Shown: positions 7,671 through 41,828 of the stretch, in pieces
How positions within the stretch are numbered: the first letter of the stretch is position 1
Layout: each line of letters opens with the position of its first letter
Source of the DNA: Candidatus Latescibacterota bacterium
Lineage (GTDB): Bacteria > Latescibacterota > UBA2968 > GCA-2709665
Direction of reading: 5' to 3'
Length of the DNA: 64,000 bases
NCBI GenBank assembly: GCA_963667175.2
Contig: CAXXXF010000014.1
Coordinates: 334,072 to 398,071 of the forward strand
The notes under the pieces: generated by a model
Seen by the model: only the letters and a program-made list of their open reading frames with translations
The model's database searches: none
What the model was told of the DNA's origin: nothing
Made by a program: the position numbers and the translations under genes

Positions 7671-8969
7671 TCAATTCCGCGTGTCTTCCGCAATACAATA
7701 GAGGTGGCTGCGCCCCCGCAAATAGAGGTCGTCCCCCACAACAACCGGCGACGCCCCGCTCCCTTCGTCCAGGGTGTTCTTCGCCAGAACCTCGAATTCA
7801 GGGCCGTTCCTGACAACGAGCGTGGTACCCTCGAGGTCGGAAATGTACACGCGGCCGCCGGCGCCTACCAGCGACGCGTAGACGAAGCCCATCCCGTCAA
7901 TGCGTTCCGGCCCGAAGAGTGGCTTCCCGGTGCCCGCGTCATAGCAGGACAGGATCGCTCCCCGGCCCTTCATGAGAAACAGCCGGCCGCCGTAGAGCAG
8001 GGGTGACGACACATAGGGTGTGTTCCGCGCGATCGACCATACAACCGAGTTCGAACCCGAGACGTCGCCCTTCGCCCTGGCCAGATCAATTGCCTGCATG
8101 GCGGGGTCCCTGTGGCCGCTGGCCACGTACACCACCCCGTTTTCGTACAACGGCGTCGGAATCACGTTCGTCCCCAATCCGCCGCATTCCCAGATCAACG
8201 CACCGGTCTTCAGGTCGTAGCCACGGGTGCGGCGCGACGCGCTGACGATCACCTGGATCCGGCCGCCGTGGTCAATAGGCAGCGGCGTGGACCAGGAGGT
8301 CACCTCATCCCGCGCCTTGCGCCAGAGTTCCCTGCCCGACGATTTGTCCAGCGCGACAATGAATGAGTCCCCTTCGTGGTCCCAGTTGATCACCAGCGTG
8401 CTGCCGTGGATCATTGGCGAAGCCCCCTCGCCGAAAGCGGCCCTGCTCCAGTATTTGCCCAGATCTTTCTCCCACTTCAGATTGCCGTCCATGTCGAGGC
8501 AATAGAGCCCCTGCGACCCGAAATACGCAAAGAGGTGTTCCCCGTCCGTAATGCCCGAGGGTGACGCAAACGACGCCGTCCGGTGCATTCCCTCGTGCGG
8601 CCGGGCCTCCCGGACCGTCTTTTCCCAGATGGTTTCTCCGGTCCCGCGATCCAGGGCCAGGACCCTGTATTGAAACAGATTGGGCGGGGGTTGGCGCCTT
8701 CCCCCTCCGGTGTTCTCCACAACCTTGTCAGTCATGACGGCTGTCTGCACGAAAATCCGCTCGCCCCAGACAACCGGCGTTGCGTGGCCCAGACCGGGAA
8801 TGGGCGCCTTCCATCTGATATTCTTCCCTTCGCTCCACTCAACGGGCGGATTCGCCCCGTCGACCAGCCCGTTGCGGTTCGGTCCGCGCCAATGCGGCCA
8901 GTCTGACGCGGCCGGTCCGGTTGAAACCAGCAGACAGAAAACAGAAAAGGCCAGCGTCATCCGATTCAT
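7671..8969 (-). CDS. Secreted PQQ-binding-like beta-propeller repeat protein
   Basis: Signal peptide, DWPHWRGP, repeated W-x-x blades, SWSTP and YVSSP motifs. Confidence 0.85.
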   Translation of the reverse strand: MNRMTLAFSVFCLLVSTGPAASDWPHWRGPNRNGLVDGANPPVEWSEGKNIRWKAPIPGLGHATPVVWGERIFVQTAVMTDKVVENTGGGRRQPPPNLFQYRVLALDRGTGETIWEKTVREARPHEGMHRTASFASPSGITDGEHLFAYFGSQGLYCLDMDGNLKWEKDLGKYWSRAAFGEGASPMIHGSTLVINWDHEGDSFIVALDKSSGRELWRKARDEVTSWSTPLPIDHGGRIQVIVSASRRTRGYDLKTGALIWECGGLGTNVIPTPLYENGVVYVASGHRDPAMQAIDLARAKGDVSGSNSVVWSIARNTPYVSSPLLYGGRLFLMKGRGAILSCYDAGTGKPLFGPERIDGMGFVYASLVGAGGRVYISDLEGTTLVVRNGPEFEVLAKNTLDEGSGASPVVVGDDLYLRGRSHLYCIAEDTRN

Positions 8970-9245
8970 AACGCGCTCCTTTCACGACATAAGACCCCAG
9001 AAGCCCGACTTCGCGCCTTCAACTGAAGATACGCTCTGCGACTCCGGAATTGAACTCTTATTTTGGTTGCCAAGCCCCAGCCAAAAATACCTCACCATTC
9101 TTCCGCCGATTCATCCCGTCTCGCCGCGTTGCCATCGCTCGCCGACCTGGCCAGGTCGCCTGCGCTCTGGCGCCTTGCGAGACGGGCGACTCGACGGCCG
9201 AATTCAGGCAACTTATTTCCGGGACAGAACACTAGCGTGCAGGCC

Positions 9246-12200
9246 TCAGGCGCCTTCCCGTTTCAACGCCGGCAACAGCGGCGTCCTCAGCGCAACCAGA
9301 ACCCCCGCGGTACCGGCAGCCAGGCCCGCGCTGAAGATAAGGCAAAGCGTGGTCAGCAACGACGCCCACGGCAGGCCGCCGGAGGCATGGGGCACGGTTG
9401 TCACGATCGCCGCCGCAACGCCGATTGCCATGCCCCGCCACCATCAGGAATCCGTTCTCCACGCAAAGGAGTCCGCTCAGCAGCGCCCGGCGAAACCCGA
9501 GCGCCCTCAGCGCCGCCAGCTCGGCACGCCGTTCAACGACGTTACGCACCATCACGATCCCAAGTCCGATCGTCCCCAGGAGCACGCCCAGCCCGCCCAG
9601 CGTCTGAAACGTGGACAGGTACGTATTCTCCACCGTCCGGAAATGCGCGAGCCTGGCAGACGTCGGCGTCGCATCGAGACCGGCGTCCTGCAACCGCCGT
9701 TCCAGGAGGGCGCCAGTTTCTCCGGGCCGGTCGGTCTCCACAAGGAAATACCCGTACCCGCTCCGATCGGGGAAATGCGCGGTGAAATTCGCCTCCGATA
9801 CGAGCAGTTCACTCTGGAAGATGCTGTGCTTCAGCAGTCCGACGAGCCGCAGCCTGACGGTCTCGCCCGTTTCCGTCTGCATCGGGATCTCGTCGCCCCA
9901 GCTTCTTGTGGAGAATCCAGGTGACCGAGTTCGCGTCGCCAAATGCGGGAATCACGCCGGGCTCCGCCTGCCGCGTCAACAACGTCCACGGCGCCTCCGC
10001 CTCGTACAGCAACCGATCGAACGCGAAACCGCCCCGTCGAATCAACGTCTCGGGCACGCCCAGAACCCGGGGATGACGCGGTCTGTAGAGATTCAGGCAA
10101 CTCACGTCTTCACCGGGCAATACGCGAAACGGCATAATTCGCGCCCCGTCCAGAATCCGGGCATCCTCCGCGGAAAACCCCAGCTCGAAACGCCCGTCCG
10201 TCGAACCGGGATCGTGGTAGAGCGGCGCATCCGTTTCGGCGATGAGCTGAAATCCGCCCCCCGCCCGACGTCCGGCTGTTCAGCGCATCGCGGCCGGCAT
10301 CGGTGCGTCGATGGGCGCCAACGGCCACAACCACGAAACATGCGCAGGCGATCAGCGATGCGCACAGCAGACTCCGGCCCGGATTTCGCGCGCTGTTCCG
10401 CACACCCATCCTCCAGATTCCGGTCACCGCCGTGCGCCGTTTCCGCTGAAACCAGACGGAGAGCGCGCACAGGCCCGAAATCAGAAGAAATGTCCCGCAT
10501 CCGAAAAACAGCGCGATCGCGGCTTCGCGCCCTGCGCGCGGCACACCGGCAAGGCAGGCCGAGGCCAGTCCCAGGCTCGCGATCGCAACCACCTTCAAAC
10601 GGCGCCCGCTGCCGGCGGCCGCGTGGTGAACGGCGCCGGAGAGTAGCGCCCGAACGGGCATCCGGCCCAAACGCCGGACCGTCGTCAGAATCGTGAACAG
10701 AACCACAACCTGTGAAATCAGGTACCCGGCCGCCAGACCGGACCCGTGCACGTGCAGCGCGAGTTCACCGGTCCCGACGGCCGGAGCCCACCAGGTGCGC
10801 AGACCCGCGATCATGATCCATCCGTACGCCAGTCCTCCCGCGAGTCCGAGAAGGCCCCCCAACCCGGTCAGCCAGACCGCCTCGCCCATGAACCGGCGTC
10901 TGATCGCGCCCGCGGTAAAACCCGACGCCATCAGCACGCCCACCTCATCGGCGCGCTGCTCCACGCCAAGCCGGAAGAGGAGACCCACGAGCAGCGCCGC
11001 CGAGACAATCAGAAACAGACTGAAACCCACGAACAGCCCGCCGAAGTCGGTGGACCCCGACGAAGCCGCCAGCCCCTGTTTTCTCACGGGCTGAAAGGCC
11101 ATGCCCGCGGATTCGGGCGGGAGCGCCTCCCTGAGTCCGGAACGAAACCGATCGGCGGATTGCCCGGCGTCCAGTCCGGGCGCGGGACCCATCCTGACGG
11201 ACGTCAGGCTGCCGAATCGGCTTCGCCAGAGTCGTTGCCCCGTGGCGGACGACACGATGGCTTTGGGCGCGGCGCGATAGGCGTCCCAATAGGCTTCGTC
11301 CGCTGGTCGTATGCGCGTCAGGTCCACGGGGAAGGGCGGATCCCAGGCGTGCATGTCTTCCGCGTCGTGAAGACCCGGAAATGCCGGCGTCAACAGGGAA
11401 TCTGCGCCCAACCCTTCCATGGCGACGACGCCCGCCAGGCGTAACGTGACGTGACGCGTGCTCAGTGCTGGTCCGGCTTCGAAATAAGCCAGCTCGACGG
11501 CGTCGCCGGTCCCGGCGTGCAGGTCCTTCGCCGCCCAGGCATTCAGCAGCACTTCCCCCTCGCCGGGGACCGGCCCGGGGCGCCCGTCAGCCAGTCGCAG
11601 CTTGCCCACGCTCCCGACGTCCAACGCGGCAACCGTTGAATAGGGCAGAACGCGATCCCCGACCCGGATCGTATTGGCCAGGTACGTGAGGATCGCCATT
11701 CGCGGCATCCCCAGTTCATCCGCGAGCCCCAGAACCGTGTTCGCCACGTGGGGCTTCAGGAGAAACCCCGTGCTTTCCACCGCGAGGTAATCCGCATCCA
11801 CCCGCATCGCAAGCCCGAGATCATCCAGCGTTGCGGCGCGTGTGAGCGCGAGCCCCGGATCGCCGGCGGCCTGCGTGTCCTGCGAAACCAGGAGCATATT
11901 CACCCGGCCCGGCAGTCCAAGCGTTTCCTGCAACAGGGGAAGGGACACGAACGCATTGAGCGGCGTCCGCTGACGCGGGCGCAGACCGAAACGACCCATT
12001 CCCCGGTCGTGCACGACACCCGTGAGTCTGACGCGGACGGTCTGTATCGACTCCGAGATCCCGTCCCGCCCGAACAGAGACTCCCTGTGGACGTCGCCCG
12101 GCAGCTCGAACGAAAGCAGGACCGCATCGCCCACGCGGGCGTTCAGTTCGCTCCGCAGAGACTCGTTGGCGACAAACGGCGTCGCGGCCCCGCGTCGGGC

Positions 12201-12560
12201 GAGGTCGGGCGCGTTGGCATCGAACAGGCCGGCGAACCGGGAATCCACACCCAGAATGGCGACGCGGGAAGCGCGGGTCCCCGCGGTGGCGTGCACCGCC
12301 GATCCAGCGAGGGTCACCGCCGGCACAACGGTCAGTCCGCCATCCGCCGCCTCGACGTCCCGCGCGAGGTCCGTGCGAAAGAAGCGATCCGAAACGAGGG
12401 CGTGATCGATATCTCCCAGGCGGTCGAGGGTCAGGTCTCTCAGGCTTTCGCGTACCGAGTCGCCCACCAGCAGGGCCCCGGTGAGCACGGCGGTGGCCAC
12501 GGCCACGCCCAGCAGCACGGACAGATGAATTCGCCAGAAGAAGGTCAGGCTTCGACGCAA
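9246..12560 (-). pseudogene. Large FtsX/MacB-like ABC permease with three +1 frameshifts (pseudogene or sequencing error)
   Basis: One protein is spread over ORFs 10110-12560, 9809-10135, 9232-9942 and 9246-9431; removing one G from runs near 10260, 9898 and 9434 restores ...SGGGGFQLIAE..., ...HKKLGDEI..., ...VAGMAIG... Confidence 0.8.
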
Positions 12561-13204
12561 GTCCCCTCCCGCAACTCAAGGGTGCGTTCGAACCGTGCTG
12601 CCATTTCCGGACTGTGCGTGACCCCGATCAGGATCGTGTCCTCCCGGGCATGCAGTTCGAATATCAGGTCGCCGATTTCATCGGCCCGCGCCCGATCCAG
12701 GCTGCCCGTCGGCTCATCGCACAGGAGAAGCGCCGGCCTGTTGACCAGCGCTCGAGCCACGGCCGCCCGCTGGCGTTCGCCGCCGGACAGAGCGGCCGGG
12801 CGGTGGTCGGCCCGATGCGCGAGTCCGACCCGTTCGATCAGGTCCCTCGCCCGGTCCCCGTCGCCGGATCCGGCGTCTCCGGACGCGAGCGTGGGAATCA
12901 GCACGTTCTCCAGTACCGAATACTGCGGCAGCAGATGGTGGTCCTGGAACACGAACCCGATCCCGCGATTCCGAAAGCGAGCCAGCTCCTTGTCGGAAAG
13001 GGCGTAGGCATCCCGGCCGTCAATCACCACGCGGCCCGACGACGGCCTGTCCAGCGTGCCCAGAACGTGGAGGAGCGTGCTCTTTCCCGATCCCGACGGC
13101 CCGACGACCGCCACGGACTGCCCACGTCCCGTCTCGAACGAAACCTCCCTCAGAACGGACACGTCGCCATACTGTTTCGATACCCGCTCAGCCCGCAGCG
13201 TCAT
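12545..13204 (-). CDS. ABC transporter ATP-binding protein (LolD-like)
   Basis: Walker A GPSGSGKS, GFVFQDHHLL, LSGGERQR, LLCDEPTG. Confidence 0.93.
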   Translation of the reverse strand: MTLRAERVSKQYGDVSVLREVSFETGRGQSVAVVGPSGSGKSTLLHVLGTLDRPSSGRVVIDGRDAYALSDKELARFRNRGIGFVFQDHHLLPQYSVLENVLIPTLASGDAGSGDGDRARDLIERVGLAHRADHRPAALSGGERQRAAVARALVNRPALLLCDEPTGSLDRARADEIGDLIFELHAREDTILIGVTHSPEMAARFERTLELREGTCVEA

Positions 13205-13628
13205 CCTCCCCCTCCTCCGCTTCCTGGATCCGGTCCGCGATGGCGCCCGGTATGGGGACGGCGCGGAACGGCTCGCCCGGGGCGCACTCGCAGAACACCG
13301 TACTCAACCGGCCCCGGGCAATCCGGACGTCGCCGCGGCGGAATTCGAACCCGTACGTGATCGAGCTCGTCCCCTTTCTGACGACCTTCAAATGGACGTC
13401 CAGCACGTCTTCGAACCGTGCCGGTTCCAGATAGTCGCACGACGCGCCAACGCGGGGCCACCCCACCCTGCGCCCTTCCCATCGGGTATGCACGCTGGCG
13501 CCGAGCGAGCGCAGGAACGCGTGCTCGGCCGCCTCCATGAAAACGAAAAACCGGGAAAAGTGCACAATCCCGGCCATGTCCGTATCCGAAAACTCGACGC
13601 GTCGCGTGGTGCGGAATTCACATGGCAT
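13188..13628 (-). CDS. Hotdog-fold acyl-CoA thioesterase (4-HBA-CoA/YbgC family)
   Basis: RVEFSDTDMAGIVHF...E motif, YLEPARFED. Confidence 0.88.
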   Translation of the reverse strand: MPCEFRTTRRVEFSDTDMAGIVHFSRFFVFMEAAEHAFLRSLGASVHTRWEGRRVGWPRVGASCDYLEPARFEDVLDVHLKVVRKGTSSITYGFEFRRGDVRIARGRLSTVFCECAPGEPFRAVPIPGAIADRIQEAEEGEDDAAG

Positions 13629-13670
13629 AGGGTTTCCTCTCGAGGATGCACCGGTCCCGGCGTCATCCGG

Positions 13671-14171
13671 TCAGGACGCGGGCTTGTAGAGCGTCACCAG
13701 GCATCCGCCCAGCGCCGCCAGCACGATCCCCAACACAAACTGCCAGTTCAGACCGCCCCATCCGCCGGCAGGCGGGTGCATGGCCATCGACACCACCGCG
13801 TTTACGACGGGCGCGCCGGCGAATACGATCGACATCACCACGGCAGGGGTGCCCCGGGCGCCAAACGCGAGAAGGACCCCGAATGCGCCGATCGCGCCCA
13901 CGGCGCCGGCCAGCAGAGACCATGTGAAGCCGCGCGCGGGGAACGACCAGTCCGCGCCGTTCATCCAGAGGACAACCATCGATCCGATGACGGCGGTCAG
14001 CAGATAGGCCACGCCCACGAGCAGGAACGCCTTGTACCGTCCGTTCACCGGATCGGCCATTGCGATCTGCCCGGTATGCAGAAAAATCCCGTACAATCCC
14101 CACGACCCCACGGTCATGGCCGCAAAAATCAACCACGTGAACCCAGGCGTCGTTGCCTGCTCGGCCGGCAT
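13671..14171 (-). CDS. Small integral membrane protein (about 5 TM, EamA/DMT-like half)
   Basis: Five hydrophobic stretches, WGLYG and VMSIVFAGAPVVN motifs; AGGAGGAG RBS. Confidence 0.65.
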   Translation of the reverse strand: MPAEQATTPGFTWLIFAAMTVGSWGLYGIFLHTGQIAMADPVNGRYKAFLLVGVAYLLTAVIGSMVVLWMNGADWSFPARGFTWSLLAGAVGAIGAFGVLLAFGARGTPAVVMSIVFAGAPVVNAVVSMAMHPPAGGWGGLNWQFVLGIVLAALGGCLVTLYKPAS

Positions 14172-14231
14172 AGAATCTCCTCCTTCGTTCTCCGGTCCAA
14201 ATCGTCGGCGTGACCTCCGTAAACGGACCGA

Positions 14232-15524
14232 TCATTCCGCGACGAATTCTCGATAGACGTCCAGCATGGCGCCTGCCATGCGCCCGTCGCTGTACGTCCG
14301 GTGGACGGTCGCACGGCCCTTTCTGCCCATACCTTCCCGGGCCTCCCTGTCCCTCATCATACGAGAAAGGCCTTCCGCAAGCGCCGCCGGTGAGCCGGGA
14401 TCGACGAGGATCCCTCCTCCGGTCGACTCGACAAGCTCCGGAAACGCGCCGTGGCGCGGCTGGACCACGGGCGTGCCATTGGCCAGCGCCTCCAGCACGA
14501 ACAACCCCTTCGGCTCCCGGTACGGCGTCGGCACGGACAGGACGTGGACGCTGTTCAGGAATTCGATCTTCTGTTCCCGGTCCACCTCGCCCCGGTACTC
14601 GAACGCATCGGTTAACCCGAGGGAATCGATCCGCGAGACGACCTCCCGGAAATAGGACTTTTCGCGTCCGCCCAGATAACCCGCCGCCAGCAGCCTGACA
14701 TTCTCCGATCCGACCTGTTCCGCCAGACGCCCCACGGCATCGGCCAGAAGATGCAATCCCTTCTCGGGCGCGATGCGGGCCATGTACCCGACCGTAAACG
14801 GGGTCTCGGGAAGCGCCCGGTCGCCCTGCCCGTGGCCTTCCAGGCCGATGCCCAGGCGGACCACGCGGAAGCGTTCCCGGGGCGCAACCAGAACCGCTGC
14901 CATGGCATCCGCGTACCAGTCGCACGTCGCCACAAACGCGTCGACGTCGCGCGACCGGTCCCGAATCAGGTCTAACGCCTCGCTTCGATACGGTTCGATC
15001 AACCCCTCGAGGAAGACGTCCTCCCCCTGTACGGAACACAGAACGGGAACGCCCGTTTCCCGCTTCAACTCACGCGCCATGCCCAGAAACATGGAATTCG
15101 TCAGATGCACGAGGTCCGGCCGGAGGTCGTCTTTCAGCCATCGAACCAGCTTTTTCAGTTCCTTCCGCTGGGCGCCATGTTCTCCCTTCAGCATCGAGAC
15201 CGTAAGCGCGCCCAGCTCGCCGGCCCGGGTCGAACCGCTGAACCAGGAAAGCGATTTCAGCAGCGTGCGCCCGTTCATCATCCGGTCCACGAATTCCGGC
15301 GTGCTGCGAAAAAACGCCAGCTTCTGCTGCAGATAGACGTTGATTCCACCGTAGAACACCCGGTTGATGCTCGCGTCGGGTCCATCGGTCCGCAACGGCG
15401 TGTACGTCGGAATCAGCGTCAGGTCCACGCCCCTGAGCCTGAGCGCCAGGGCCAGCGTATTGTCGCTGATGCAACTCCCGCAAACCATCCCCGCGGCGCC
15501 CGCGGCGATATAGGCAATTCGCAT
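14232..15524 (-). CDS. Glycosyltransferase family 4
   Basis: MRIAYIAAGAAGMVCGSC N-terminus, GYMARIAPEKGL, EPKGLFVLEALANGTPVV. Confidence 0.88.
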   Translation of the reverse strand: MRIAYIAAGAAGMVCGSCISDNTLALALRLRGVDLTLIPTYTPLRTDGPDASINRVFYGGINVYLQQKLAFFRSTPEFVDRMMNGRTLLKSLSWFSGSTRAGELGALTVSMLKGEHGAQRKELKKLVRWLKDDLRPDLVHLTNSMFLGMARELKRETGVPVLCSVQGEDVFLEGLIEPYRSEALDLIRDRSRDVDAFVATCDWYADAMAAVLVAPRERFRVVRLGIGLEGHGQGDRALPETPFTVGYMARIAPEKGLHLLADAVGRLAEQVGSENVRLLAAGYLGGREKSYFREVVSRIDSLGLTDAFEYRGEVDREQKIEFLNSVHVLSVPTPYREPKGLFVLEALANGTPVVQPRHGAFPELVESTGGGILVDPGSPAALAEGLSRMMRDREAREGMGRKGRATVHRTYSDGRMAGAMLDVYREFVAE

Positions 15525-15527
15525 GGG

Positions 15528-15757
15528 AATTAACAATTGAGAATTAGGAATTAAGAGTTGCGAATTGAGAATCAGGATTTGGCGCTACGTCTGTCCTTCG
15601 CGGTCTTCTGAATCGCTGCGAGAAGCCGACAAAAGTTTCTTCAGCATCGGAGTGGATGCCAACGAACTCATCTTCGGACAAATAGCCGGTATCTTTCAGT
15701 AAACGCAACCAATAGCTGCTTTACAATTCTAAATTCTCAATTCTTAATTCTTAATTT
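15528..15757. repeat. AT-rich inverted heptamer (AATT[A/G]AG-type) arrays flanking a gene remnant
   Basis: Left array AATTAAC-AATTGAG-AATTAGG-AATTAAG-AGTTGCG-AATTGAG; right array is the reverse complement type (CAATT-CTAAATT-CTCAATT-CTTAATT-CTTAATT). Confidence 0.75.
15572..15720 (-). pseudogene. C-terminal remnant of a four-helix-bundle (23S rRNA IVP-like, TIGR02436-type) protein
   Basis: Reads SSYWLRLLKDTGYLSEDEFVGIHSDAEE then, after a frameshift, CRLLAAIQKTAK...stop; N-terminal half absent. Confidence 0.7.
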
Positions 15758-17012: not shown

Positions 17013-17021
17013 TCGATCTTC

Positions 17022-20413: not shown

Positions 20414-20437
20414 TTGATTTCCTTTCCACGGATCCAA

Positions 20438-21655
20438 CTATCTGCCCTGCCTGAGATCCAGACAGACGATCTTACGCATGTCCCTGACGAACACGCGGCC
20501 GTTGGCCAGCGTCGGCATCGTCCAGCTTCGGCCCGTAAGCACCTGGGCGCCGGCCTTCTCCTTGAATCCTTCGGGCGTTGCCCGCGCCATCGCCAGCCTT
20601 CCGTTGTCGCTCAACAGGATGAGGTGCCCGTCCGCGTATATCAACGCCCCCTTGCCGTACCCGCGGTGTTTCCATTGCTCTTTTCCCGTCAGGGCTTCGA
20701 TACACTTCAAGATGGCGTTATCGAATCCGTAGATATAGTCCCCGACCAGCACGGACGTGCCGAAATGGTTCTTCATCCGCCGGCTTTCCCAGACTCTGGT
20801 CACCGTCATCCCGTCAGCGCCTCCCTCGATTCGCAGCAGGGTTGCGCCGTGGTCATAGCCCGAGGAAATGAAGATCTGATTCGGCGGCACGAAGATGGGC
20901 GTTGCGATATTCAGATCGTACGACGTCTTCCACGGGTACCTCCAGTACAGGGACCCATCCACCGGCGAAAGGCCGACCGCGGCGTCACCCGAAAAATAGA
21001 CCACCTGCCGCGCGCTGGCGAGATCCACCGCGATTGGCGATGAATACGAAGCCACGTCGTTCTGGGAAGCCCAGACGACTTCGCCGTCCGTCCTGCGCAA
21101 TGCCAGAAACGTGCCCTTGCGGGTGGCCGCCTCCAGGAATAACCGGTCGCCTTCCACCAGAGCCGAATTCGAAAAGCCGAACCGGGGAAACCGCCCGCCC
21201 AGCCCGTCGACCAGGTCCACGGACCAGATCATCTTGCCGTTCACCACGTTCAGCGCGTACAACCCGCCCTCCGCGCCCAGGACGTAGACCCGATCGCCGT
21301 CGACCGTCGGCTGCGATCGGGGTCCGTCGCCACCCTGCCATTCCTCGAACTTCGCACCTGTCCTGAACCGCCAGATTTCTTCGCCGGATTCTTCACGCAG
21401 ACAGATGACGAACTCATCGTCACCCTCGGCGAACATGGTGAAGACGCGGCCGTTCGCGACCGAAATGCCCGAAAACCCCTCGCCGAGGTTCTTCTTCCAC
21501 GCAACCGCCGGACCGCCCTTCGGCCATTCCTTAAGGAATCCGGTCTCGGTCGAGATTCCCGTTCGATCAGGACCCAACCATTGGGGCCAATCCGCTCGAA
21601 CAGATTGGACGTTGAGCAACAGAAAGACAACGGTCAAAACCGATATTTCACGCAT
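20438..21655 (-). CDS. Secreted PQQ-binding-like beta-propeller repeat protein
   Basis: Signal peptide, DWPQWLGP, GPRSQPTV, SYSSP, SWTMP. Confidence 0.85.
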   Translation of the reverse strand: MREISVLTVVFLLLNVQSVRADWPQWLGPDRTGISTETGFLKEWPKGGPAVAWKKNLGEGFSGISVANGRVFTMFAEGDDEFVICLREESGEEIWRFRTGAKFEEWQGGDGPRSQPTVDGDRVYVLGAEGGLYALNVVNGKMIWSVDLVDGLGGRFPRFGFSNSALVEGDRLFLEAATRKGTFLALRRTDGEVVWASQNDVASYSSPIAVDLASARQVVYFSGDAAVGLSPVDGSLYWRYPWKTSYDLNIATPIFVPPNQIFISSGYDHGATLLRIEGGADGMTVTRVWESRRMKNHFGTSVLVGDYIYGFDNAILKCIEALTGKEQWKHRGYGKGALIYADGHLILLSDNGRLAMARATPEGFKEKAGAQVLTGRSWTMPTLANGRVFVRDMRKIVCLDLRQGR

Positions 21656-21697
21656 CTTGCGCTAATCCTTTCTGAACAGTCCGGACGACCAGTATTC

Positions 21698-21725
21698 GTA
21701 GGGGCGACCGGCCGGTCGCCCCTAC
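21698..21725. repeat. REP-like perfect palindrome (GTAG class)
   Basis: GTAGGGGCGACCGG|CCGGTCGCCCCTAC, intergenic; related partial copy at 63972-63993. Confidence 0.75.
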
Positions 21726-21749
21726 ATCGGACGCCGGCTTGGGAGGGCT

Positions 21750-23096
21750 TCACGTGTACCTCGAATCCCGATAGACCTCGTGATAGAACTCCGGCAACAA
21801 CTGATCGACGCGCAATAGTCCATCACGGCTCAGAGTAATACGCTGCGCGTCGAAATCCAGCATGCCGAAATCTCTCAGCTTCCGGTAGGCTTCGCCAAAT
21901 CGTTCCAGGATATTCACGCCGAATTTATCCTGAAAATACGCTGTCTCGAGCCGTCCGAGCTTGAGTTGCAGGATCATTTCGCGTACCAGGCGCTCCCCGT
22001 CGGTGGGCAGGAAGGACCTGTTCAGCGGCAGGCGCCCCTGCATACATGCGTCTACATAGGGGTCCCACTGCGTGTGATTCTGAAAGTGTATCCCGCCCAC
22101 GTGCGAAAACGACGCGACGCCCGCGCCGATCAGGTCCGCGCTCCGCCAGAGCGCGTCCCGATAGACAAACCGCTTCGGTCGACCCTTCCTGACCATCGTA
22201 TAGGCGCTCGAGATCTCGTATCCGGCCTCGGCGAACGCGTCGATCGCATGGGCATGCCAGTCGCGCTTCGTGTCCCAGTCGGCAACCGTCAATCCGTTTC
22301 CATCCAGAAGCGTCCGGGAGTACGTCGTATTGAACGGCAGCTCCATCTGATAGATCGTGACACTGTCCGGGTCCAGGTCGATCGTGCCCTGCACCGTCTC
22401 CTTCCAGGTCCGCCAGGTTTCGCCCACCATTCCCGAAATCAGGTCCACGTTCACCTGTTCGAACGCCTGCGCCTTCACCCAGTCCATGGACCGGTAGATC
22501 TCTTTGCCGACGTGCGCCCGGCCGTTCTCCTTCAGGATCCCGTCGTTCAGATTCTCCAGCCCCAGGCTCAGGCGGGTCACGCCAATCTCGCGAATGGCCT
22601 CCACCTTCGGCTGCGAAAGCGTGCCCGGCTCACACTCGAACGCCACCTCTTCGGCGTCGTCCCACGGCAACACGGCCTTCAGCCGGTCCACCAGCGCCTC
22701 CAGGTGCTTCACGCTGATGTACGACGGCGTTCCCCCTCCGAAATAGACGAACTGCAGACTGCGACCGGCGATTCTCGGCATCCCGGCGTAATTTTCCACC
22801 TCTCGGGCCAGCGCATCCAGATAGAGCTGAATTTCGGAACTGTTGCGGTCCGTATACACGCGAAAATAGCAGAACTTGCATCGCTTCCTGCAAAACGGGA
22901 TATGCAGATACAGTCCGAGCGGCACATCCCCGGCCGAAGGATCCGAAACCTGGAACATCGCTTCGACCTGCGGGTTGTGCTCGTCCCGCCAGAACGAATA
23001 CGGCGGATAGTTGGACACGAAGACGCTGCCGACCGCGGTTTCCTTCCATTCCTTCCTGGAGGTCGCGGGTTCCGGAACGTGAACCTGGTTGCTCAT
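21750..23096 (-). CDS. HemN-like radical SAM protein
   Basis: LYLHIPFCRKRCKFCYF (CxxxCxxC), YFGGGTPS, RLSLG, NVDLISG. Confidence 0.9.
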   Translation of the reverse strand: MSNQVHVPEPATSRKEWKETAVGSVFVSNYPPYSFWRDEHNPQVEAMFQVSDPSAGDVPLGLYLHIPFCRKRCKFCYFRVYTDRNSSEIQLYLDALAREVENYAGMPRIAGRSLQFVYFGGGTPSYISVKHLEALVDRLKAVLPWDDAEEVAFECEPGTLSQPKVEAIREIGVTRLSLGLENLNDGILKENGRAHVGKEIYRSMDWVKAQAFEQVNVDLISGMVGETWRTWKETVQGTIDLDPDSVTIYQMELPFNTTYSRTLLDGNGLTVADWDTKRDWHAHAIDAFAEAGYEISSAYTMVRKGRPKRFVYRDALWRSADLIGAGVASFSHVGGIHFQNHTQWDPYVDACMQGRLPLNRSFLPTDGERLVREMILQLKLGRLETAYFQDKFGVNILERFGEAYRKLRDFGMLDFDAQRITLSRDGLLRVDQLLPEFYHEVYRDSRYT

Positions 23097-24250
23097 TCTC
23101 CCGCCTCATTGCCAAAACAGTACAACGTCCCGTCTGTGGCGCCGATCACGAGCCTCCCGCCGGCCACGCTCGGCGACGCCAGGACTCCCGAACCGGTCAC
23201 GAATTCCCAGCCCGGTTCGCCCGAGTCCAGATCCAGCGCAACGATCCTCCCGCCGGTCGTGCCCACGAACGCGCGTTTGCCCGCGATAACCGGCGAGGAA
23301 TCGACTCGGGAACGGAACGCGCGAATCCACAACACGTCGCCGTTGTCCGGACGCAGCGCGCGCACCATCCTGTCGCGCCCGGCGACAATCACGTGACCTT
23401 GCGCAACCGCCGGCGACGCGTAGTAGGGAAACTTCCGGGTGGGGTGTTCGTACCGCCACAGCACCTTCGCCGCCCGCAGATCCATGCCCAGGACCTGGTT
23501 GCCGAATGTTCCCGCAAAGGCCCGACCATTGCGCACGGCAACGCTCGCCGCCACGTAGTCGTACAGTTCCACCCTCGATACTTCCTCTCCGCCGGCCGCG
23601 TTCACCATCCGCAGCAGACCGTCGCATCCGGCGACAAGCGCGCGTTCGCCCCAGATGGCCGGGGTTCCGTGAACGTATCCCTCCGTCTCCAGCTTCCAGA
23701 CCAGCGACCCGTCCTCCGCATCGAGACAGTACAGGAACTGATCGTAGGACCCGAAGATCACCCGGCCTTCGTACACGGTGGCGGAAGAGATGATCTCTCC
23801 CCCGGTCCGATAGGTCCACAATCCCTTGCCAGACGTCGCATCCACGGCGTGAAAGCCGCCGTCTCCGTCTCCGAAGAAAACCGCATTTGCCGCCACCAGC
23901 GGGGAGGCCTTGATTTCTCCCCCGGCCGGGTATTTCCATTTCAACGCGCCGGTGTCGAAATCGAAGGCATAGAGATTGCCGTCCAGCCCGCCGACGAAAA
24001 CGGCGCCCTTCCGGATCGCCGCCGTGGACTCGATGCCCTCGGATACGCGGGCAGTCCACGCGACAACCGGACTGTCGGGCAGGGATTCCCGGGCGAGCCC
24101 CGTGGATTGAGCGTCGCCCCGGAACCGCGGCCAGGACGTCTCGGCGGTGACGCGGACGGGTACCGGTACGTACAAGACGCACAATAAGAGAAAAACGTTC
24201 CATCCGCGACCCACGTTTCGCCGCGCCCGAAATTCAATACGTCTCTTCAT
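23093..24250 (-). CDS. PQQ-binding-like (BamB/AfsK-type) beta-propeller repeat protein
   Basis: WPRFRGD followed by regular blades SSP-x-V...G..DG.LY..D...G...W; start chosen at ATG 24250. Confidence 0.85.
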   Translation of the reverse strand: MKRRIEFRARRNVGRGWNVFLLLCVLYVPVPVRVTAETSWPRFRGDAQSTGLARESLPDSPVVAWTARVSEGIESTAAIRKGAVFVGGLDGNLYAFDFDTGALKWKYPAGGEIKASPLVAANAVFFGDGDGGFHAVDATSGKGLWTYRTGGEIISSATVYEGRVIFGSYDQFLYCLDAEDGSLVWKLETEGYVHGTPAIWGERALVAGCDGLLRMVNAAGGEEVSRVELYDYVAASVAVRNGRAFAGTFGNQVLGMDLRAAKVLWRYEHPTRKFPYYASPAVAQGHVIVAGRDRMVRALRPDNGDVLWIRAFRSRVDSSPVIAGKRAFVGTTGGRIVALDLDSGEPGWEFVTGSGVLASPSVAGGRLVIGATDGTLYCFGNEAGE

Positions 24251-25349
24251 ATAGCGCCAGATAATCGGTTTCCCGGACCGGCCGTGGGTTGAACGTTCCC
24301 GTCCACTGGCGCGCCGCGGCGGACGCCAATTCGGGGAGCCGCTCCCGTTCAACGCGCAGTTCACGAAGACGCGCCGGCAATTCCGCCGCGCGTGCGAATC
24401 GCTCGATCCGATGGGCGAGCGCGCCGGCCGGCATCCCGAACCCTTCGAAGCGCGCCGCGTCCGTTTCCCCGTTGAACCGGATCACCGGCGGAAGCATCAC
24501 ACCGACCGCAACGCCGTGTGTAATTCCGTATCGGGCCGTCAGCGGGTTTGCGCACGCGTGGGCGGCGCCGAGCATCGCGTTCTCGATCGCCGCTCCCGCG
24601 AAATGCGCGCCCAGAAGCATCGCAGCCCTGGCGCCCGGATCCGCCGCCGGTTCGAGAGACCCTTCGAAGCCCGACGAGAGCAGCCGCCACGCCTCGCGCG
24701 CGTACATGCGCGACACCGCGTTCCGCTTTGTACAGACGTAACTTTCCACGGCGTGCGCGACGGCGTCTATGCCCGACGCGGCCGCAACGTGCCCTGGGAC
24801 GCTTGCCGTGAGTGCGGGATCCAGAATGACGCCTCGAAACCGCGCCCCGAGGTCGCCGCAGGCCATCTTCTCGTGAGTGTCCCGCGTGGCAATCAGCGCA
24901 TAGGACTGGGCCTCGCTTCCCGTCCCCGCGGTGGTCGGAATGCCGATCGACGGAAGCATCGGGCGCTTTGCCCCGCCCATCCCGCGGTAGTCCTCGATGC
25001 GCCCGCCGTTGGTGAGAATGAAATTGATCCCTTTGGCGCAGTCCATCGCGCTCCCGCCGCCAATCCCCACGATCAGATCGGTCCCGCCGCGCGCCCCGGC
25101 GAACGCCACCCCTGCGTCCACGTGGGCCGTTGTCGGGTTCTCCTCCACGTCGTCGAACAGAAAGACGTCGCGCCCCGATCCGCGCAGCAAGTCCAACGCC
25201 CTGTCCGCGATGCCCGCGCTGACGATCCCCGGATCGCTCACGAGCAGAGTTCGTCGTCCGCCCAGTCCATTCGCCAGTTCCGGGAGCTGCGCCAGCGCGC
25301 CCTCTCCGAAGATCACACGCGGTGCGGGATGGAGGTCGAAGGGTTCCAT
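24234..25349 (-). CDS. Iron-containing alcohol dehydrogenase
   Basis: GGGSAMD, PTTAGTGSE, DAVAHAVE, LGAAHACA, HGVAVG metal ligands. Confidence 0.92.
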   Translation of the reverse strand: MEPFDLHPAPRVIFGEGALAQLPELANGLGGRRTLLVSDPGIVSAGIADRALDLLRGSGRDVFLFDDVEENPTTAHVDAGVAFAGARGGTDLIVGIGGGSAMDCAKGINFILTNGGRIEDYRGMGGAKRPMLPSIGIPTTAGTGSEAQSYALIATRDTHEKMACGDLGARFRGVILDPALTASVPGHVAAASGIDAVAHAVESYVCTKRNAVSRMYAREAWRLLSSGFEGSLEPAADPGARAAMLLGAHFAGAAIENAMLGAAHACANPLTARYGITHGVAVGVMLPPVIRFNGETDAARFEGFGMPAGALAHRIERFARAAELPARLRELRVERERLPELASAAARQWTGTFNPRPVRETDYLALYEETY

Positions 25350-25359
25350 TCGAGGATAC

Positions 25360-26823
25360 CTACGCACTCCTTGCGAACTGAAAGGCGCGCTGACGGTAGA
25401 GATGCTCGAATAGATTGCCTTCGTGAGGCTGGTCCCACGAAATCCGGTTCGTGGGAATCGGCCCCGCGTTCAGCCGATCCACGTGCGGTGAATTCAGCAA
25501 CTCGCCGACGAGGTCTTCATCCTCCGTCAACACCGTGACCACGAGGCTGGGCCCGATCCGGTCCGGCAATCCGACCCGGGGCGCTTCAACCACGCTCGAA
25601 TACGGAAAGAGGTATTCCGTATTCGCCAGGGGGTGTTCAGGAGATTCACACCAGACCAGCGTCGGATTCAGGAACGTCAGGCCGTCCAGTTCGGCAAGCC
25701 GGTCGCCGCGCAGGCCCCCGGTCAGATCCTCCGCGCCACCGCTTTTCAGATGGACATCGATAACGTTTGAAATTTGGGCGGCAATCGCCGGATTGGAAAA
25801 GGCGGCAATCCGAGCTTGCGGGTCGTGCAGCGGCCTGGGCTCGATTCGCGCGAGCCGGCGCGCGATCGCTTCGGCAATCTCGCGGCCGTACGCAGGCGTC
25901 CAAACACCCGACGCGTTGATACAGGAACGTCCGCCGTTGGCCGCGATCGAAACCAGGATCACATCCAGATAATCCTCCCATCGGTGAACCAGGTCTTCGC
26001 CCAGAATCACCTTGCTGCGGCCCGGACCGTGGATCGAAACCCGCGGATCCCTCTGCCACGGTTCGACCGTAGCGCCGCCCCCGAACAAAAGGGAGCGCCC
26101 GCATCGCAGAAGGATTTCGTTGGCGCCAGCGTGCCCGGTCGGATAGATCCCGAACGCCTCGCGCGGACATCCCGCGGCAATAAACGCCTGTGCAATCCGA
26201 AAGGGCGTCCACGGGTCCTCACGGCCGGGCTTCAGTACCAGGGGCGCCTTCAGCGACGGCGACGGAATCCAGAGCGAATGCACGCCGGGCGAATTGCTCG
26301 GCAACACGGCGCCAAGGGCGTCGGTCTCGCAGACATAGCTCAGCGGCCGGCCGTTTTGCGGACCCCACCCCCGGTCAAGCACGGACAGATCCAGCTGGCG
26401 CGTCAGACCGGCGAGTACGTCGTCGATCTGTGAACAAGCCAACCGGATCTTTTCCATATTCTCCCGGCAGAGGGTCTCGGGAATCCCCGTGGTACCCGAT
26501 ACCTGGCGGACGTAGTCTCCGGGCGATTGCGACTCGTTGTGTAGCGGCAGGTCCGCCTCCGCGAACAGTCGGCCGGCCCGGCGCGTCACGGCTGCAAGAT
26601 CGGAGACGCTGAACGCCTCGAGTGCCCGTCTATTTCCTTCCGCGGCGTTCAGATCCCTCGCGATCAGACCCGGATTCGCGTGGCTCACGCGGACGAGGGG
26701 TTCCCCGGTCTGAACGTGCGGGACTTCCTGGACGTCCAGACTTGCGTATGGCTCTCCCGCTCGCAGAACCGGGATATGGGTCACGCCATCCTCCTGGTTC
26801 GTCAGTTCAGCCTGTGCCGTCAT
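25360..26823 (-). CDS. Aldehyde dehydrogenase-fold protein (GriD/EhpG-like acyl reductase)
   Basis: VLPSNSPGVH, LKPGREDP, HGPGRSK, NGGRSCINAS catalytic Cys, EYLFP; start at ATG 26823. Confidence 0.8.
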   Translation of the reverse strand: MTAQAELTNQEDGVTHIPVLRAGEPYASLDVQEVPHVQTGEPLVRVSHANPGLIARDLNAAEGNRRALEAFSVSDLAAVTRRAGRLFAEADLPLHNESQSPGDYVRQVSGTTGIPETLCRENMEKIRLACSQIDDVLAGLTRQLDLSVLDRGWGPQNGRPLSYVCETDALGAVLPSNSPGVHSLWIPSPSLKAPLVLKPGREDPWTPFRIAQAFIAAGCPREAFGIYPTGHAGANEILLRCGRSLLFGGGATVEPWQRDPRVSIHGPGRSKVILGEDLVHRWEDYLDVILVSIAANGGRSCINASGVWTPAYGREIAEAIARRLARIEPRPLHDPQARIAAFSNPAIAAQISNVIDVHLKSGGAEDLTGGLRGDRLAELDGLTFLNPTLVWCESPEHPLANTEYLFPYSSVVEAPRVGLPDRIGPSLVVTVLTEDEDLVGELLNSPHVDRLNAGPIPTNRISWDQPHEGNLFEHLYRQRAFQFARSA

Positions 26824-26873
26824 CCGCTCCCTGAGCTTGCGGTCCCTGAGTCTGCCGAAGGGTAGGCCACGGG

Positions 26874-27977
26874 TCAGTAAACGCCCACCACGACCGACTC
26901 CTGCATTTCGGAGAACAGTCCCAGATTCCTCACCCCGTCCCACGGAAACGCCCCGCTCGGTTCCGCCCGTTCGCCCTCGTCCCGTTCCAGAAACCGCGGC
27001 ATGAAGAACTCGCGGGTCAGCGTCGTCAGCATCACGCGGCCAACGGTGTTGTAATCCACCAGCCGGTCCGGATGATCGGGATCCACCAATTCGATCACCG
27101 CCCTGGGAACCGGCGGATAATAGGTGATGGCATAATTGTCCGAAGGCTCCAGCGGCTTGGAATACGCCAATCCCATCAATGTATTTCCGTAGGTCGGCAC
27201 GAAATCGATGCCGGGAATGAGTTCCTCCCTGGCGAACCGGTTGAACTGTGCGTCCATCTCGGTTCCCCCGCAGAAAATTCCGGTTATCCCGGCTTTCTTC
27301 AGCGAGATCTTTTCGCAGATCGCTTCGAGAAGCTTCGGGGTCGTGAACATACACTTCACATGGTCGTTCGCCCGAAGAATGGTCAGCGCCTGGTCGATCA
27401 CGTGCGCCTTGTAGAGATCCAGTTCCTGGAGCGCTCCCCGAGCAATCAATTTGTTCACCCACCTGGGATCCAGGTCCACCAGGAAACAGACCCCGCCGCG
27501 GATCTGGCAGAGGTATTCAACCGCCAGGCGCAGTCGCCTCGGACCCGTCGGACCCAGCATCAGCCAGTCGGCGCCCCTCGGAAACGTCTCGTTTGAAAGG
27601 TACCCGCTGAACGTCTCGTAGTCGATCTGAAAGTCATCCTGGCTGATCCGGTATTTCGCGACGCCCGTGGACCCTCCCGTCTCAAAGACAAACGTCCGCT
27701 TCCCGGCGCTTCCCCGGGGAATCCAGCGGCGCACCGGGCCCCCGCGAAGCCAATCGTCCTGAAAATGACCCAGAATCTTCAGATCCGCGAAACGACCGAT
27801 CTCCCCGCGTGGATCGAAATCCAGCCCATCCGCGAATTCCAGCCAGAACGGGCAGCCGGTTTCGGGATTGAAGTGCCACGCTACCGTCTCCCGAACGTGG
27901 GCATCCAGTTCGTCTCTCGCAATCTTGATTTTGTCGGCAATTTGCATGTTCTTCGCGACCCGCTCCTCAGTCGTCAT
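26874..27977 (-). CDS. Short adenylate-forming protein of the GriC/EhpF/LuxE-like group
   Basis: WHFNPETGCPFW, FETGGSTG P-loop, GGTE, YGNT, VDYNTVGRVMLTTL, FLERD; lacks the usual C-terminal subdomain; adjacent to ALDH-fold gene. Confidence 0.7.
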   Translation of the reverse strand: MTTEERVAKNMQIADKIKIARDELDAHVRETVAWHFNPETGCPFWLEFADGLDFDPRGEIGRFADLKILGHFQDDWLRGGPVRRWIPRGSAGKRTFVFETGGSTGVAKYRISQDDFQIDYETFSGYLSNETFPRGADWLMLGPTGPRRLRLAVEYLCQIRGGVCFLVDLDPRWVNKLIARGALQELDLYKAHVIDQALTILRANDHVKCMFTTPKLLEAICEKISLKKAGITGIFCGGTEMDAQFNRFAREELIPGIDFVPTYGNTLMGLAYSKPLEPSDNYAITYYPPVPRAVIELVDPDHPDRLVDYNTVGRVMLTTLTREFFMPRFLERDEGERAEPSGAFPWDGVRNLGLFSEMQESVVVGVY

Positions 27978-40806: not shown

Positions 40807-40816
40807 GGGGAATAAC

Positions 40817-41008: not shown

Positions 41009-41020
41009 ACTATTCCCGCT

Positions 41021-41063
41021 CACAGCAAAACGGCCCGATCAGAGATCGGGCCGTTTTGCTGTG
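41021..41063. terminator. Bidirectional intrinsic terminator-like hairpin
   Basis: Perfect 20-bp inverted repeat CACAGCAAAACGGCCCGATC-AGA-GATCGGGCCGTTTTGCTGTG between convergent genes. Confidence 0.7.
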
Positions 41064-41749: not shown

Positions 41750-41828
41750 GGCGGGTGCTTTCCCTACGTTAGATCGACTTACTACCCATTTACCCTTCTG
41801 ACACGGCCCTCTAATTCTGTTGAAGCGT

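Follow-up and report, generated by a model that had tools for sequence, protein, structure and literature searches.

A conserved two-module gene system joining a predicted EhpF/GriC-type acid reductase to a halogenase, a glycosyltransferase, an ABC machine and exported beta-propellers

Introduction

What does a bacterium do with an operon that joins an acid-reductase pair to a halogenase, a sugar transferase, an ATP-binding cassette (ABC) machine and secreted beta-propellers? The question is raised by 15 tightly packed genes on the minus strand, at positions 27977-7671 of a 64,000-nt window (the whole stretch of DNA that we analysed, to which all coordinates refer) from contig CAXXXF010000014.1 of a Candidatus Latescibacterota bacterium. 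The initial annotation had described these as about 15 co-directional genes with overlapping or abutting junctions, and had proposed that they form one uncharacterised biosynthetic or modification system. We found that they belong to a system of two modules that recurs in several phyla, and that the modules are kept together as one system. Our reading of the whole is that an acid would be reduced to an aldehyde and then to an alcohol, C-methylated, halogenated and glycosylated; the product would be handled in the envelope by the ABC machine and the propellers, and taken up through a TonB-dependent receptor and a tripartite ATP-independent periplasmic (TRAP) or sodium-solute symporter (SSS) importer. 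We give this reading, which is built from sequence homology, a probability of roughly one half.

Results

Organization of the locus

We identified the genes by searches against Pfam, NCBIfam and the sequences in the PDB. These searches recovered every gene family that had been named in the initial annotation. The minus strand carries all real genes of the stretch, which has a G+C content of about 60-67%. The genes of the operon, in the order in which they would be transcribed, are the following.

26874..27977, minus strand: EhpF/GriC-like adenylating enzyme, 367 amino acids (aa); PDB EhpF, E 1.3e-40; weak Pfam AMP-binding match
25360..26823, minus strand: partner with the aldehyde dehydrogenase (ALDH) fold, 487 aa, presumed EhpG/GriD-type reductase; Pfam Aldedh, E 1.7e-9; motif GGRSC
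24234..25349, minus strand: iron-type alcohol dehydrogenase (Fe-ADH), 371 aa; Pfam Fe-ADH 1.1e-43, ADH_Fe_C 7e-32
23093..24250, minus strand: exported propeller 1, 385 aa, signal peptide; Pfam Beta-prop_ACSF4, 200 bits (cut-off 133), and PQQ_2
21750..23096, minus strand: HemN-like (class C) radical S-adenosylmethionine (SAM) enzyme, 448 aa; Pfam Radical_SAM and HemN_C
20438..21655, minus strand: exported propeller 2, 405 aa, signal peptide, directly before the receptor gene; Pfam PQQ_2, 4e-39
18296..20413, minus strand: TonB-dependent receptor of the siderophore-receptor subfamily; TIGR01783, 263.1 bits against a cut-off of 223.5
17022..18299, minus strand: PaaK-like aryl/acyl-coenzyme A (CoA) ligase, 426 aa; PDB 4r1l, 8.4e-59; Pfam AMP-binding and AMP-binding_C_2
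15744..17012, minus strand: predicted flavin-dependent halogenase of the PltA/CndH/CmlS type, 422 aa; PDB 8zop 6.8e-65, PltA 1.4e-57, CndH 6e-57, and CmlS
14232..15524, minus strand: GT4 glycosyltransferase, 430 aa, with an N-terminal CxxC; Pfam Glycos_transf_1, 8e-29
13671..14171, minus strand: half-size membrane protein resembling drug/metabolite transporters (DMT/EamA), 166 aa, about five transmembrane (TM) segments; ESM-atlas features
13188..13628, minus strand: hotdog (YbgC/4HBT-type) thioesterase, 146 aa; Pfam 4HBT, 1.1e-11
12545..13204, minus strand: ABC ATPase of the LolD/MacB/YbbA type, 219 aa; Pfam ABC_tran; motif GPSGSGKST
9246..12560, minus strand: fused double-FtsX permease of a type VII ABC machine; Pfam MacB_PCD and FtsX; four frames in this assembly
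7671..8969, minus strand: exported propeller 3, 432 aa, signal peptide; Pfam PQQ_2, 1.3e-27
6636..7652, minus strand: TRAP solute-binding protein of the TAXI family; TIGR02122, 245.9 bits against a cut-off of 84.35
4712..6634, minus strand: fused TRAP permease of the DctM type, 640 aa; Pfam DctM, 1.1e-79

The packing is as tight as had been claimed. From the first gene to propeller 3, successive gaps measure +50, +10, -17, -4, +94, +24, -4 (an ATGA junction), +9, +219, +60, +42, -17, -16 and +276 nt (negative values are overlaps), i.e. genes overlap at five junctions, all on the minus strand, and several others nearly abut. The TAXI gene follows propeller 3 after 18 nt and the TRAP permease gene (the pair spans 7652-4712) follows after one more. 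The most likely arrangement is an operon of about 17 genes that probably extends past propeller 3, through the TAXI-TRAP importer, to position 4712.

The genes form one conserved system

We scanned one genome per species and obtained at least 582 candidate stretches, and at least 540 species have a gene for a relative of the EhpF-like protein. In the protein database, this protein makes up 8000 or more clusters, most of them unnamed or called 'PaaK-like'. Neighbours were counted around the best 80 loci, within 10 kb per side, a limit that lowers the counts of genes further downstream. By the submitters' labels these 80 loci come from Latescibacterota, Gemmatimonadota, Acidobacteriota, Planctomycetota, Poribacteria and Calditrichia, and their EhpF-like proteins are 59-91% identical across phyla. 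In 70 of the 80 loci, the next gene downstream of the EhpF-like gene is the ALDH-like one. The Fe-ADH is present in 55, propeller 1 and the HemN-like enzyme in 47 each, propeller 2 (same strand, at least 40% identical) in 34 and the TonB receptor in 33. When we followed the locus further in five genomes, we found the halogenase, GT4, the half-size DMT protein, the ATPase and the permease in all five, the PaaK-like ligase and the hotdog thioesterase in four each, and propeller 3 with the TAXI-TRAP importer in three. The gene order is kept in loci labelled Latescibacterota, Gemmatimonadota, Acidobacteriota, Planctomycetota and Calditrichia.

Two further propellers, A (about 720 aa) and B (about 480 aa), are encoded directly upstream of the EhpF-like gene in most phyla; in our genome this pair lies on another contig (C3:522016-525681). 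Module A, in most phyla, thus consists of propellers A and B, the EhpF-like and ALDH-like enzymes, the Fe-ADH, propeller 1, the HemN-like enzyme, propeller 2 and the TonB receptor. Module B comprises the PaaK-like ligase, the halogenase, in some lineages a DUF3311 protein with an SSS symporter, GT4, the half-size DMT protein, the hotdog thioesterase, the ABC ATPase, the double-FtsX permease and a propeller; in the clade of our genome the TAXI-TRAP importer is added. The initial annotation had placed the system at 7671-27977. The core of that interval stands, while its limits are too narrow, because the TAXI-TRAP importer and the unlinked propeller A/B pair belong to the system.

The architecture varies between lineages. 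In Bryobacteraceae, Terriglobia and Pyrinomonadaceae we observed a short form with only the EhpF-like and ALDH-like enzymes, GT4, the ATPase and the permease, flanked by propellers. In a Calditrichia genome (G006), nonribosomal peptide synthetase (NRPS) genes stand between GT4 and the ABC ATPase (L101 18445-19998, L102 382-5295); they encode a protein with an adenylation (A) domain, a condensation-adenylation-thiolation module and two alpha/beta hydrolases. This insertion fits with small-molecule chemistry, and could help identify the scaffold. A tree of the EhpF-like proteins agrees for the most part with the phylum labels: the label changes nine times (the minimum is five, the mean for shuffled labels 32), and the short-form Acidobacteriota group with Planctomycetota.

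The nearest relatives of our locus, with EhpF-like proteins about 90% identical and the same gene order, are metagenome-assembled genomes labelled either Gemmatimonadota or Candidatus Latescibacterota. One of the two submitter labels on such close relatives is probably wrong.

We then tested co-inheritance in an even sample of 121 genomes of the phylum, our genome included. The EhpF-like gene is present in 59 and missing from 62. A GT4 orthologue was found in 59 genomes, 57 of which have the EhpF-like gene, and the halogenase in 58, again 57 with it. All 42 genomes with the SSS symporter have the EhpF-like gene, as do 42 of the 43 with the TAXI protein, which is often unlinked. The exceptions are few. 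Two genomes have the EhpF-like gene without a GT4 match, and they are 88% (G127) and 75% (G094) complete. Two others have a GT4 match without the EhpF-like gene, and these matches are weak (36% and 44% identity). One genome that is 84% complete (G079) has the halogenase, the partial GT4 match and the TAXI protein without the EhpF-like gene. The pattern holds at close range: in one genus (g14), the same four of eight genomes hold the EhpF-like gene, GT4, the halogenase and the SSS symporter. It also holds for propeller B, which occurs in 5/5 cluster-positive and 0/5 cluster-negative genomes (96-98% complete). Linkage is not required. In five genomes (G062, G017, G028, G065 and G092) 0.3-3 Mb of one chromosome separate the EhpF part from the halogenase-GT4 part; in these, propeller B remains by EhpF and the halogenase by GT4, together with the SSS symporter in G092.

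These data bear on whether the locus might be a chance mosaic, with unrelated small operons lying side by side. Internal promoters could lie in the gaps of 94, 219 and 276 nt, some genomes have the cluster divided between two places, and unrelated sugar-metabolism genes abut it upstream in this clade. Against this, the gene order is conserved across phyla, and the halves are jointly kept or lost among the 121 genomes and within the genus. Because the modules are co-retained or co-lost even when megabases apart, we consider a chance mosaic ruled out and give it next to no credence. The cross-phylum synteny and the co-inheritance of unlinked parts bear out the proposal of a single conserved system: homologues are not scattered, and we found no described pathway in the literature that this gene set matches.

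An acid-reductase pair of the EhpF/GriC type

EhpF and EhpG, of the D-alanylgriseoluteic acid pathway of Pantoea agglomerans, and GriC and GriD of Streptomyces griseus are two-protein, ATP-dependent aryl-carboxylate reductases. For EhpF and EhpG, an activation and reduction of phenazine-1,6-dicarboxylate like that by the Streptomyces pair has reportedly been proposed (Bera et al. in 2010). In the grixazone pathway, GriC makes the acyl-AMP of 3-amino-4-hydroxybenzoic acid (3,4-AHBA), which GriD reduces to the aldehyde, as stated in a passage of PMC10179220. The adjacency of ehpF and ehpG appears in a table of PMC11278526.

The first enzyme of the cluster resembles EhpF from end to end: its residues 23-353 of 367 align with residues 19-351 of the 366-aa EhpF in the PDB (3l2k/3hgu; E 1.3e-40). 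EhpF is its only clear relative there, as the initial annotation's call of an acid-reductase pair would lead one to expect. Both are stand-alone ANL N-terminal domains of equal length that lack the ANL C-terminal domain, and in both cases a gene for an ALDH-fold protein with a catalytic Cys comes next. That partner has only weak ALDH matches in the PDB; its Cys motif, GGRSC, could be read in the translation. By homology, the first two genes are thus established as a predicted EhpF/GriC-type two-protein carboxylate reductase, and we regard the call as sound. We also considered a LuxE/LuxC pair and rejected it, as neither protein matches the LuxE or LuxC families of Pfam and EhpF is the sole clear structural relative. 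Unlike in the EhpF and GriC systems, genes for phenazine or 3,4-AHBA are not adjacent here, and the cluster adds an Fe-ADH, GT4, an ABC machine and exported propellers to the pair. The Fe-ADH scores under every NCBIfam equivalog cut-off.

Tailoring enzymes

The HemN-like enzyme has the CxxxCxxC motif of radical SAM enzymes (CRKRCKFC in the translation). Among PDB sequences it matches HemN (8e-31) and the methyltransferase NocN (6e-25), and it falls below the equivalog cut-offs of HemN (175.8 vs 324.95), HutW (174.7 vs 400) and HemW (154.5 vs 205.4). It is, on its sequence, a class C radical SAM enzyme equally far from HemN and NocN, an assignment that goes as far as superfamily membership. The combination with a receptor recalls the ChuW/HutW type of haem degradation, a reading that we rejected given the score under the cut-off and the lack of other haem genes.

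The flavoprotein shows the signatures that mark relatives of PltA, CndH and CmlS: GGGPAGS, WFWYIP and GFLDPVYSSG (for GxGxxG, WxWxIP and FxDPxxSxG). Its E values against solved members range from 1e-49 to 1e-65. The Lys in its 'RKY' aligns with that in the 'KKF' of PltA, which we take to be the conserved halogenase Lys. WxWxIP, FxDPxxSxG and the aligned Lys are thus shared with halogenases of the PltA, CndH, CmlS and Bmp2/Mpy16 types. A protein-tryptophan hydroxylase of the QhpG/LodB type was rejected, since these families score 133 and 112 bits against 209-223 for halogenases, and we saw no precursor peptide gene. Hence, the assignment as a predicted flavin-dependent halogenase is sound. It differs from CmlS in reaching 208.7 bits where the equivalog cut-off is 900, and from PltA/CndH/CmlS-type systems in that genes for a carrier protein and a flavin reductase are not in this cluster.

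The start of the PaaK-like ligase gene overlaps the stop codon of the receptor gene (ATGA). The ligase falls below the cut-offs of TIGR02155 (208.3 vs 646.3) and NF041878 (245.5 vs 700) and is kin at the family level only; the hotdog thioesterase is likewise under those of TIGR00051 and TIGR02799. An alignment of 11 GT4 orthologues has an intact EX7E motif, nearly invariant Cys residues in CGxC and an invariant C163. In place of the usual glycine-rich N-terminal motif these orthologues carry a near-invariant AAGAAxMxCGxCxxDN. The Cys residues may form a metal or redox site.

The ABC machine, the half-size membrane protein and the propellers

The initial annotation had spoken of a LolD/FtsX exporter. 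The ABC ATPase and FtsX families are right. The LolD label is not: the ATPase scores 249.6 bits against LolD (TIGR02211), short of the cut-off of 307.75, LolC and LolE are not separate, and a LolA-like gene is absent from the cluster. The pair is a type VII (MacB/LolCDE-like) machine. It shares with MacB, LolCDE, YbbAP and DevBCA a LolD/YbbA-like ATPase and a permease with MacB-type periplasmic domains and FtsX modules, and its 10-TM fused layout resembles that of YbbP. Unlike in other type VII machines, the permease is one chain of 1106 aa with a first periplasmic domain of about 480 aa. Partners of the membrane fusion protein (MFP), LolA or TolC kinds are not encoded in the cluster, and the exported propellers are the only candidates for that role.

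In this assembly the permease gene runs through four frames; the shifts lie near 10257, 9896 and 9433, each next to a run of G. In two relatives (L092 and L093) the gene is a single 1106-aa open reading frame. Contigs from three DNA runs of two studies are each one base short at 9433, 9896 and 10257; with the three extra bases removed, one frame of 1103 aa results, 73.5% identical to L092 from end to end. The other cluster genes that we read have no frameshifts. That the contigs of all three runs lack one base at each site suggests homopolymer errors in this assembly. Most likely they are assembly errors, or at most strain-specific, and the gene is intact in the population.

The 166-aa membrane protein has no match in Pfam or NCBIfam. 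Its ESM-atlas features score 0.97 to clusters automatically named DMT permease, and it is 62-93% identical in other loci.

The system encodes five distinct families of exported propellers, three in the window and two (A and B) elsewhere. Orthologues of propeller 3, 61-82% identical, follow the permease gene in three other genomes (G001-G003). The predicted model of propeller B (predicted local distance difference test, pLDDT, 85) is an eight-bladed propeller. It matches YxaL (Z 37.0, root-mean-square deviation 2.2 over 335 residues), BamB (Z 33-35) and alcohol dehydrogenases that use pyrroloquinoline quinone (PQQ; Z about 29). Across 23 orthologues, polar residues are invariant at many positions, such as those of PHN and DPEHGE. 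For propeller A, the predicted structure of the C-terminal 290 residues (pLDDT 92) combines an immunoglobulin (Ig)-like with a ConA-like lectin domain; the closest matches are to the galactocerebrosidase lectin domain, CBM66 and the carbohydrate-binding modules of sialidases, and no Pfam family matched this C-terminus at E up to 5. The propellers differ from BamB in score, as the best of the five reaches 162 bits against a cut-off of 285.2, and in their signal peptides, which by inspection lack a lipobox Cys at the cleavage site. Propeller A differs from both BamB and YxaL in bearing the Ig-like and lectin-like domains.

A type VII machine next to a glycosyltransferase raises the possibility that the product is an envelope glycolipid or another surface component. 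In this reading a membrane-bound acceptor is glycosylated by GT4 and flipped by the half-size DMT protein, and the ABC machine would extract it from the inner membrane for delivery to the outer membrane by the propellers, loosely like Lol or the export of heterocyst glycolipids by DevBCA. GT4, the ABC ATPase and the double-FtsX permease are the invariant core of the system and are adjacent in the short form. The known type VII ABC systems take their cargo from the membrane or the periplasm. The cluster encodes neither an MFP nor a LolA partner, and in several phyla the gene after the permease is a propeller gene. On the other hand, genes that build lipids are absent from the cluster, and importers and a TonB receptor fit poorly with a one-way assembly line. 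Flavin halogenases of this kind are known to act on aromatic or enol substrates, and the substrates in the EhpF and GriC precedents are aryl acids. A preprint on sponge clusters, discussed below, reports for such clusters best gene matches to BrtI, of the exporter cassette for the halogenated glycolipid bartoloside (bioRxiv 10.64898/2026.08.03.742642). On balance we think that an envelope component is an unlikely product.

The propellers also suggest a more specific role. The operon could make, export and salvage a new small periplasmic cofactor or ligand for its five co-inherited eight-bladed propellers, which fold like PQQ dehydrogenases and keep many polar residues invariant. If true, the system would resemble quinoproteins but work with a cofactor other than PQQ, and the TonB receptor with the TRAP or SSS importers would serve this cofactor as PqqU serves PQQ. 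A search for PqqC (TIGR02111) gave no match in our genome and none in the control genomes either. We regard this as a speculative idea with little probability.

The receptor and the importers

The TonB receptor has plug and barrel domains, passes the TIGR01783 cut-off and lacks the STN signalling domain. The TRAP permease follows the TAXI gene in G001-G003 too. Against the PDB, the TAXI protein matches only TAXI structures that are unnamed or called 'immunogenic protein', and these give no clue to the ligand. The DUF3311-SSS pair adjoins GT4 in seven loci, is 62-68% identical across phyla (46% in one locus) and stays beside GT4 even in genomes where GT4 stands alone. Our genome has no orthologue of the SSS symporter, nor has any genome of its family in the 121-genome sample.

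What is retrieved by these proteins divides two further readings. The first is a more specific form of our own, a metallophore cycle. A metal-binding phenolic glycoside would be made and exported, and its metal complex retrieved by the receptor and an importer. This is consistent with the receptor score (263.1 vs 223.5), with a layout of exporter, receptor and importer as in siderophore clusters, with the co-inheritance of the SSS and TAXI importers with the cluster, and with the NRPS genes of the Calditrichia variant. It is harder to reconcile with the window itself, where Pfam and NCBIfam reveal no NRPS, no NRPS-independent siderophore (NIS) synthetase and no enzymes that form catechols or hydroxamates. 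The short form and the Phycisphaerae loci that we examined have no receptor within reach, the receptor lacks the STN domain, and TRAP and SSS proteins are not known as usual siderophore permeases. We hold a metallophore to be improbable.

The second is uptake and remodelling: an external aryl or heteroaryl carboxylate would be imported, reduced, tailored and glycosylated for salvage, storage or detoxification, and then passed on or out. Two carboxylate-type importers (TAXI-TRAP and DUF3311-SSS) are linked to the system by neighbourhood and co-inheritance, an enzyme that makes the scaffold is not encoded, and the PaaK-like ligase with the hotdog thioesterase recalls the first steps of aryl-acid catabolism. 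Yet genes for ring cleavage and beta-oxidation are absent; GT4, the halogenase and a C-methylating radical SAM enzyme are biosynthetic rather than catabolic, and the short form has neither importer within reach. We therefore find this reading quite unlikely.

Discussion

A proposed pathway for the system and its weak points

We return to the reading that we prefer, in which a small molecule is made by reduction and tailoring of an acid. In the cytoplasm, the EhpF-like enzyme would adenylate a carboxylic acid, which is probably aromatic or heteroaromatic and electron-rich. The acyl group would pass to the Cys of the ALDH-fold partner and be reduced there with NAD(P)H to the aldehyde, which the Fe-ADH would turn into the alcohol. 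The class C radical SAM enzyme would C-methylate the ring and the halogenase add Cl or Br, with the PaaK-like ligase and the hotdog thioesterase handling the CoA thioester of the acid. GT4 would then add a sugar, and the resulting glycoside would cross the inner membrane by way of the half-size DMT protein. In the periplasm, the type VII ABC machine and the eight-bladed propellers, one with a lectin-like domain, would act on the product. Uptake of the product, or of the precursor acid, would fall to the TonB receptor with the TRAP or SSS importers. Since the short form has only the EhpF-like and ALDH-like enzymes, GT4, the ABC machine and propellers, we take reduction, glycosylation and envelope handling to be the core. 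This suggests that methylation, halogenation and the CoA steps are tailoring around it.

Several points weigh against this pathway, and explain why we do not rate it higher. The product (or cofactor, or envelope part), the substrate, the order of the steps, the activities of all genes and the acceptor of GT4 are predicted from homology and inference, and the basis for an aromatic substrate is only the EhpF/GriC precedent and the halogenase. The short form lacks the halogenase, the radical SAM enzyme and the ligase. Other lineages vary as well: one locus (L096) has no PaaK-like ligase or hotdog thioesterase, another (L039) no halogenase within reach, and the genes are dispersed in Poribacteria (G007) and in one Phycisphaerales genome (G009). 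The cluster has no enzyme that makes a scaffold, and in our genome, which is 95% complete, we found no match to PF01959 (GriH-type 3,4-AHBA synthase) or PF02797 (type III polyketide synthase), two families that matched in control genomes. We know of no type VII ABC machine that carries cytoplasmic small molecules. As a consequence, the export step leans on the 166-aa protein, which is uncharacterised. Co-occurrence counts overstate the number of separate gains and losses, because related genomes are not independent. Finally, in one metatranscriptome library, contigs that are 90-95% alike cover the cluster in eight places, one of which is the propeller 1/Fe-ADH junction. As DNA can be present in such libraries, we do not count these contigs as proof of expression; they are a weak hint of expression in a relative.

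Relation to known clusters

In the literature, we found no characterised pathway that matches this gene set. The closest description is that of 'Halo_AMP' orphan clusters from sponge microbiomes, a class whose definition asks for a flavin halogenase together with an AMP-binding enzyme (Loureiro et al., bioRxiv 10.64898/2026.08.03.742642, Aug 2026). According to this preprint, PQQ-like domains are frequent in these clusters, together with genes for TonB, glycosyltransferases, thioesterases, radical SAM enzymes and ABC proteins; the sources include Acidobacteriota (16%), Latescibacterota (9%) and Poribacteria (8%), and no products are reported. Our cluster has a halogenase and two AMP-binding-type genes within 11 kb and so falls under the Halo_AMP definition as given there. 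It differs from the focus group of that work, CC A, which has cytochromes P450; our cluster has none. The text of the preprint does not treat the acid-reductase pair, the halogenase-free short form or occurrence outside sponges. The parts of the system are known families, and their combination is without a characterised counterpart. Most unusual is the association of five exported propellers and two importers with an acid reductase, a type VII ABC machine and a sugar transferase.

Surroundings of the operon and other features of the window

A block upstream of the operon (27967-34308) encodes a PcRGLX/GH127-like protein, a LarA-like racemase and two oxidoreductases of the Gfo/Idh/MocA type; a gene of the latter type shares 11 nt with the first gene of the cluster. 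The block occurs in 11 of the 80 loci, all of this clade, and occupies the position that propellers A and B have in other phyla. The upstream neighbours in other clades (DUF6785, PhyH, SAICAR synthetase, GT2, PMT and TPR proteins) include no common regulator or precursor enzyme. Searches with Rfam at gathering thresholds in the window and four loci gave 0 matches and thus no riboswitch clue, and a scan of 8200-28199 for promoter and terminator consensus sequences revealed nothing exceeding shuffled controls.

Two short elements lie within the operon, and a shift in base composition lies beyond it.

9071..9232, no strand assigned: copy of a dispersed repeat of about 150 bp, outside the system, skipped by contigs of other runs
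21697..21727: perfect G+C-rich palindrome in the 94-nt gap between the HemN-like gene and propeller 2
40001..46000: stretch of lower G+C content

The repeat, between the permease and propeller 3, has at least 10 near-full copies in our genome (85-97% identical) and is skipped by contigs of four other runs (X1, X2, X3 and X18). This suggests a small mobile element, like a miniature inverted-repeat transposable element (MITE), that is polymorphic between strains. The 94-nt gap with the palindrome has 42 short matches in our genome, and contig depth is raised there; the palindrome looks like a repetitive extragenic palindromic (REP) element. The G+C content falls from about 0.60-0.65 to 0.45-0.50 across some 6 kb at 40001-46000 and is 0.50-0.58 from there to the window end; the low stretch may be foreign DNA or an island. 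Two sponge-metagenome runs hold 94 and 106 contigs at least 99% alike to the window.

Conclusion

This system is carried by phyla that abound in soils, sediments and sponges and have hardly any cultured members; standard cluster finders lack a rule that would detect it. In it, an acid reductase of the rare two-protein kind stands together with a halogenase, a putative C-methylating radical SAM enzyme, a type VII ABC machine and a sugar transferase. With two unlinked modules so closely co-inherited, our hypothesis can be tested directly in any cultured carrier. The identity of the product would name a widespread metabolite, possibly halogenated, and would give a function to a large group of proteins now called 'BamB-like' or 'PQQ-like'. 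It might also reveal a new working mode of MacB-type machines.

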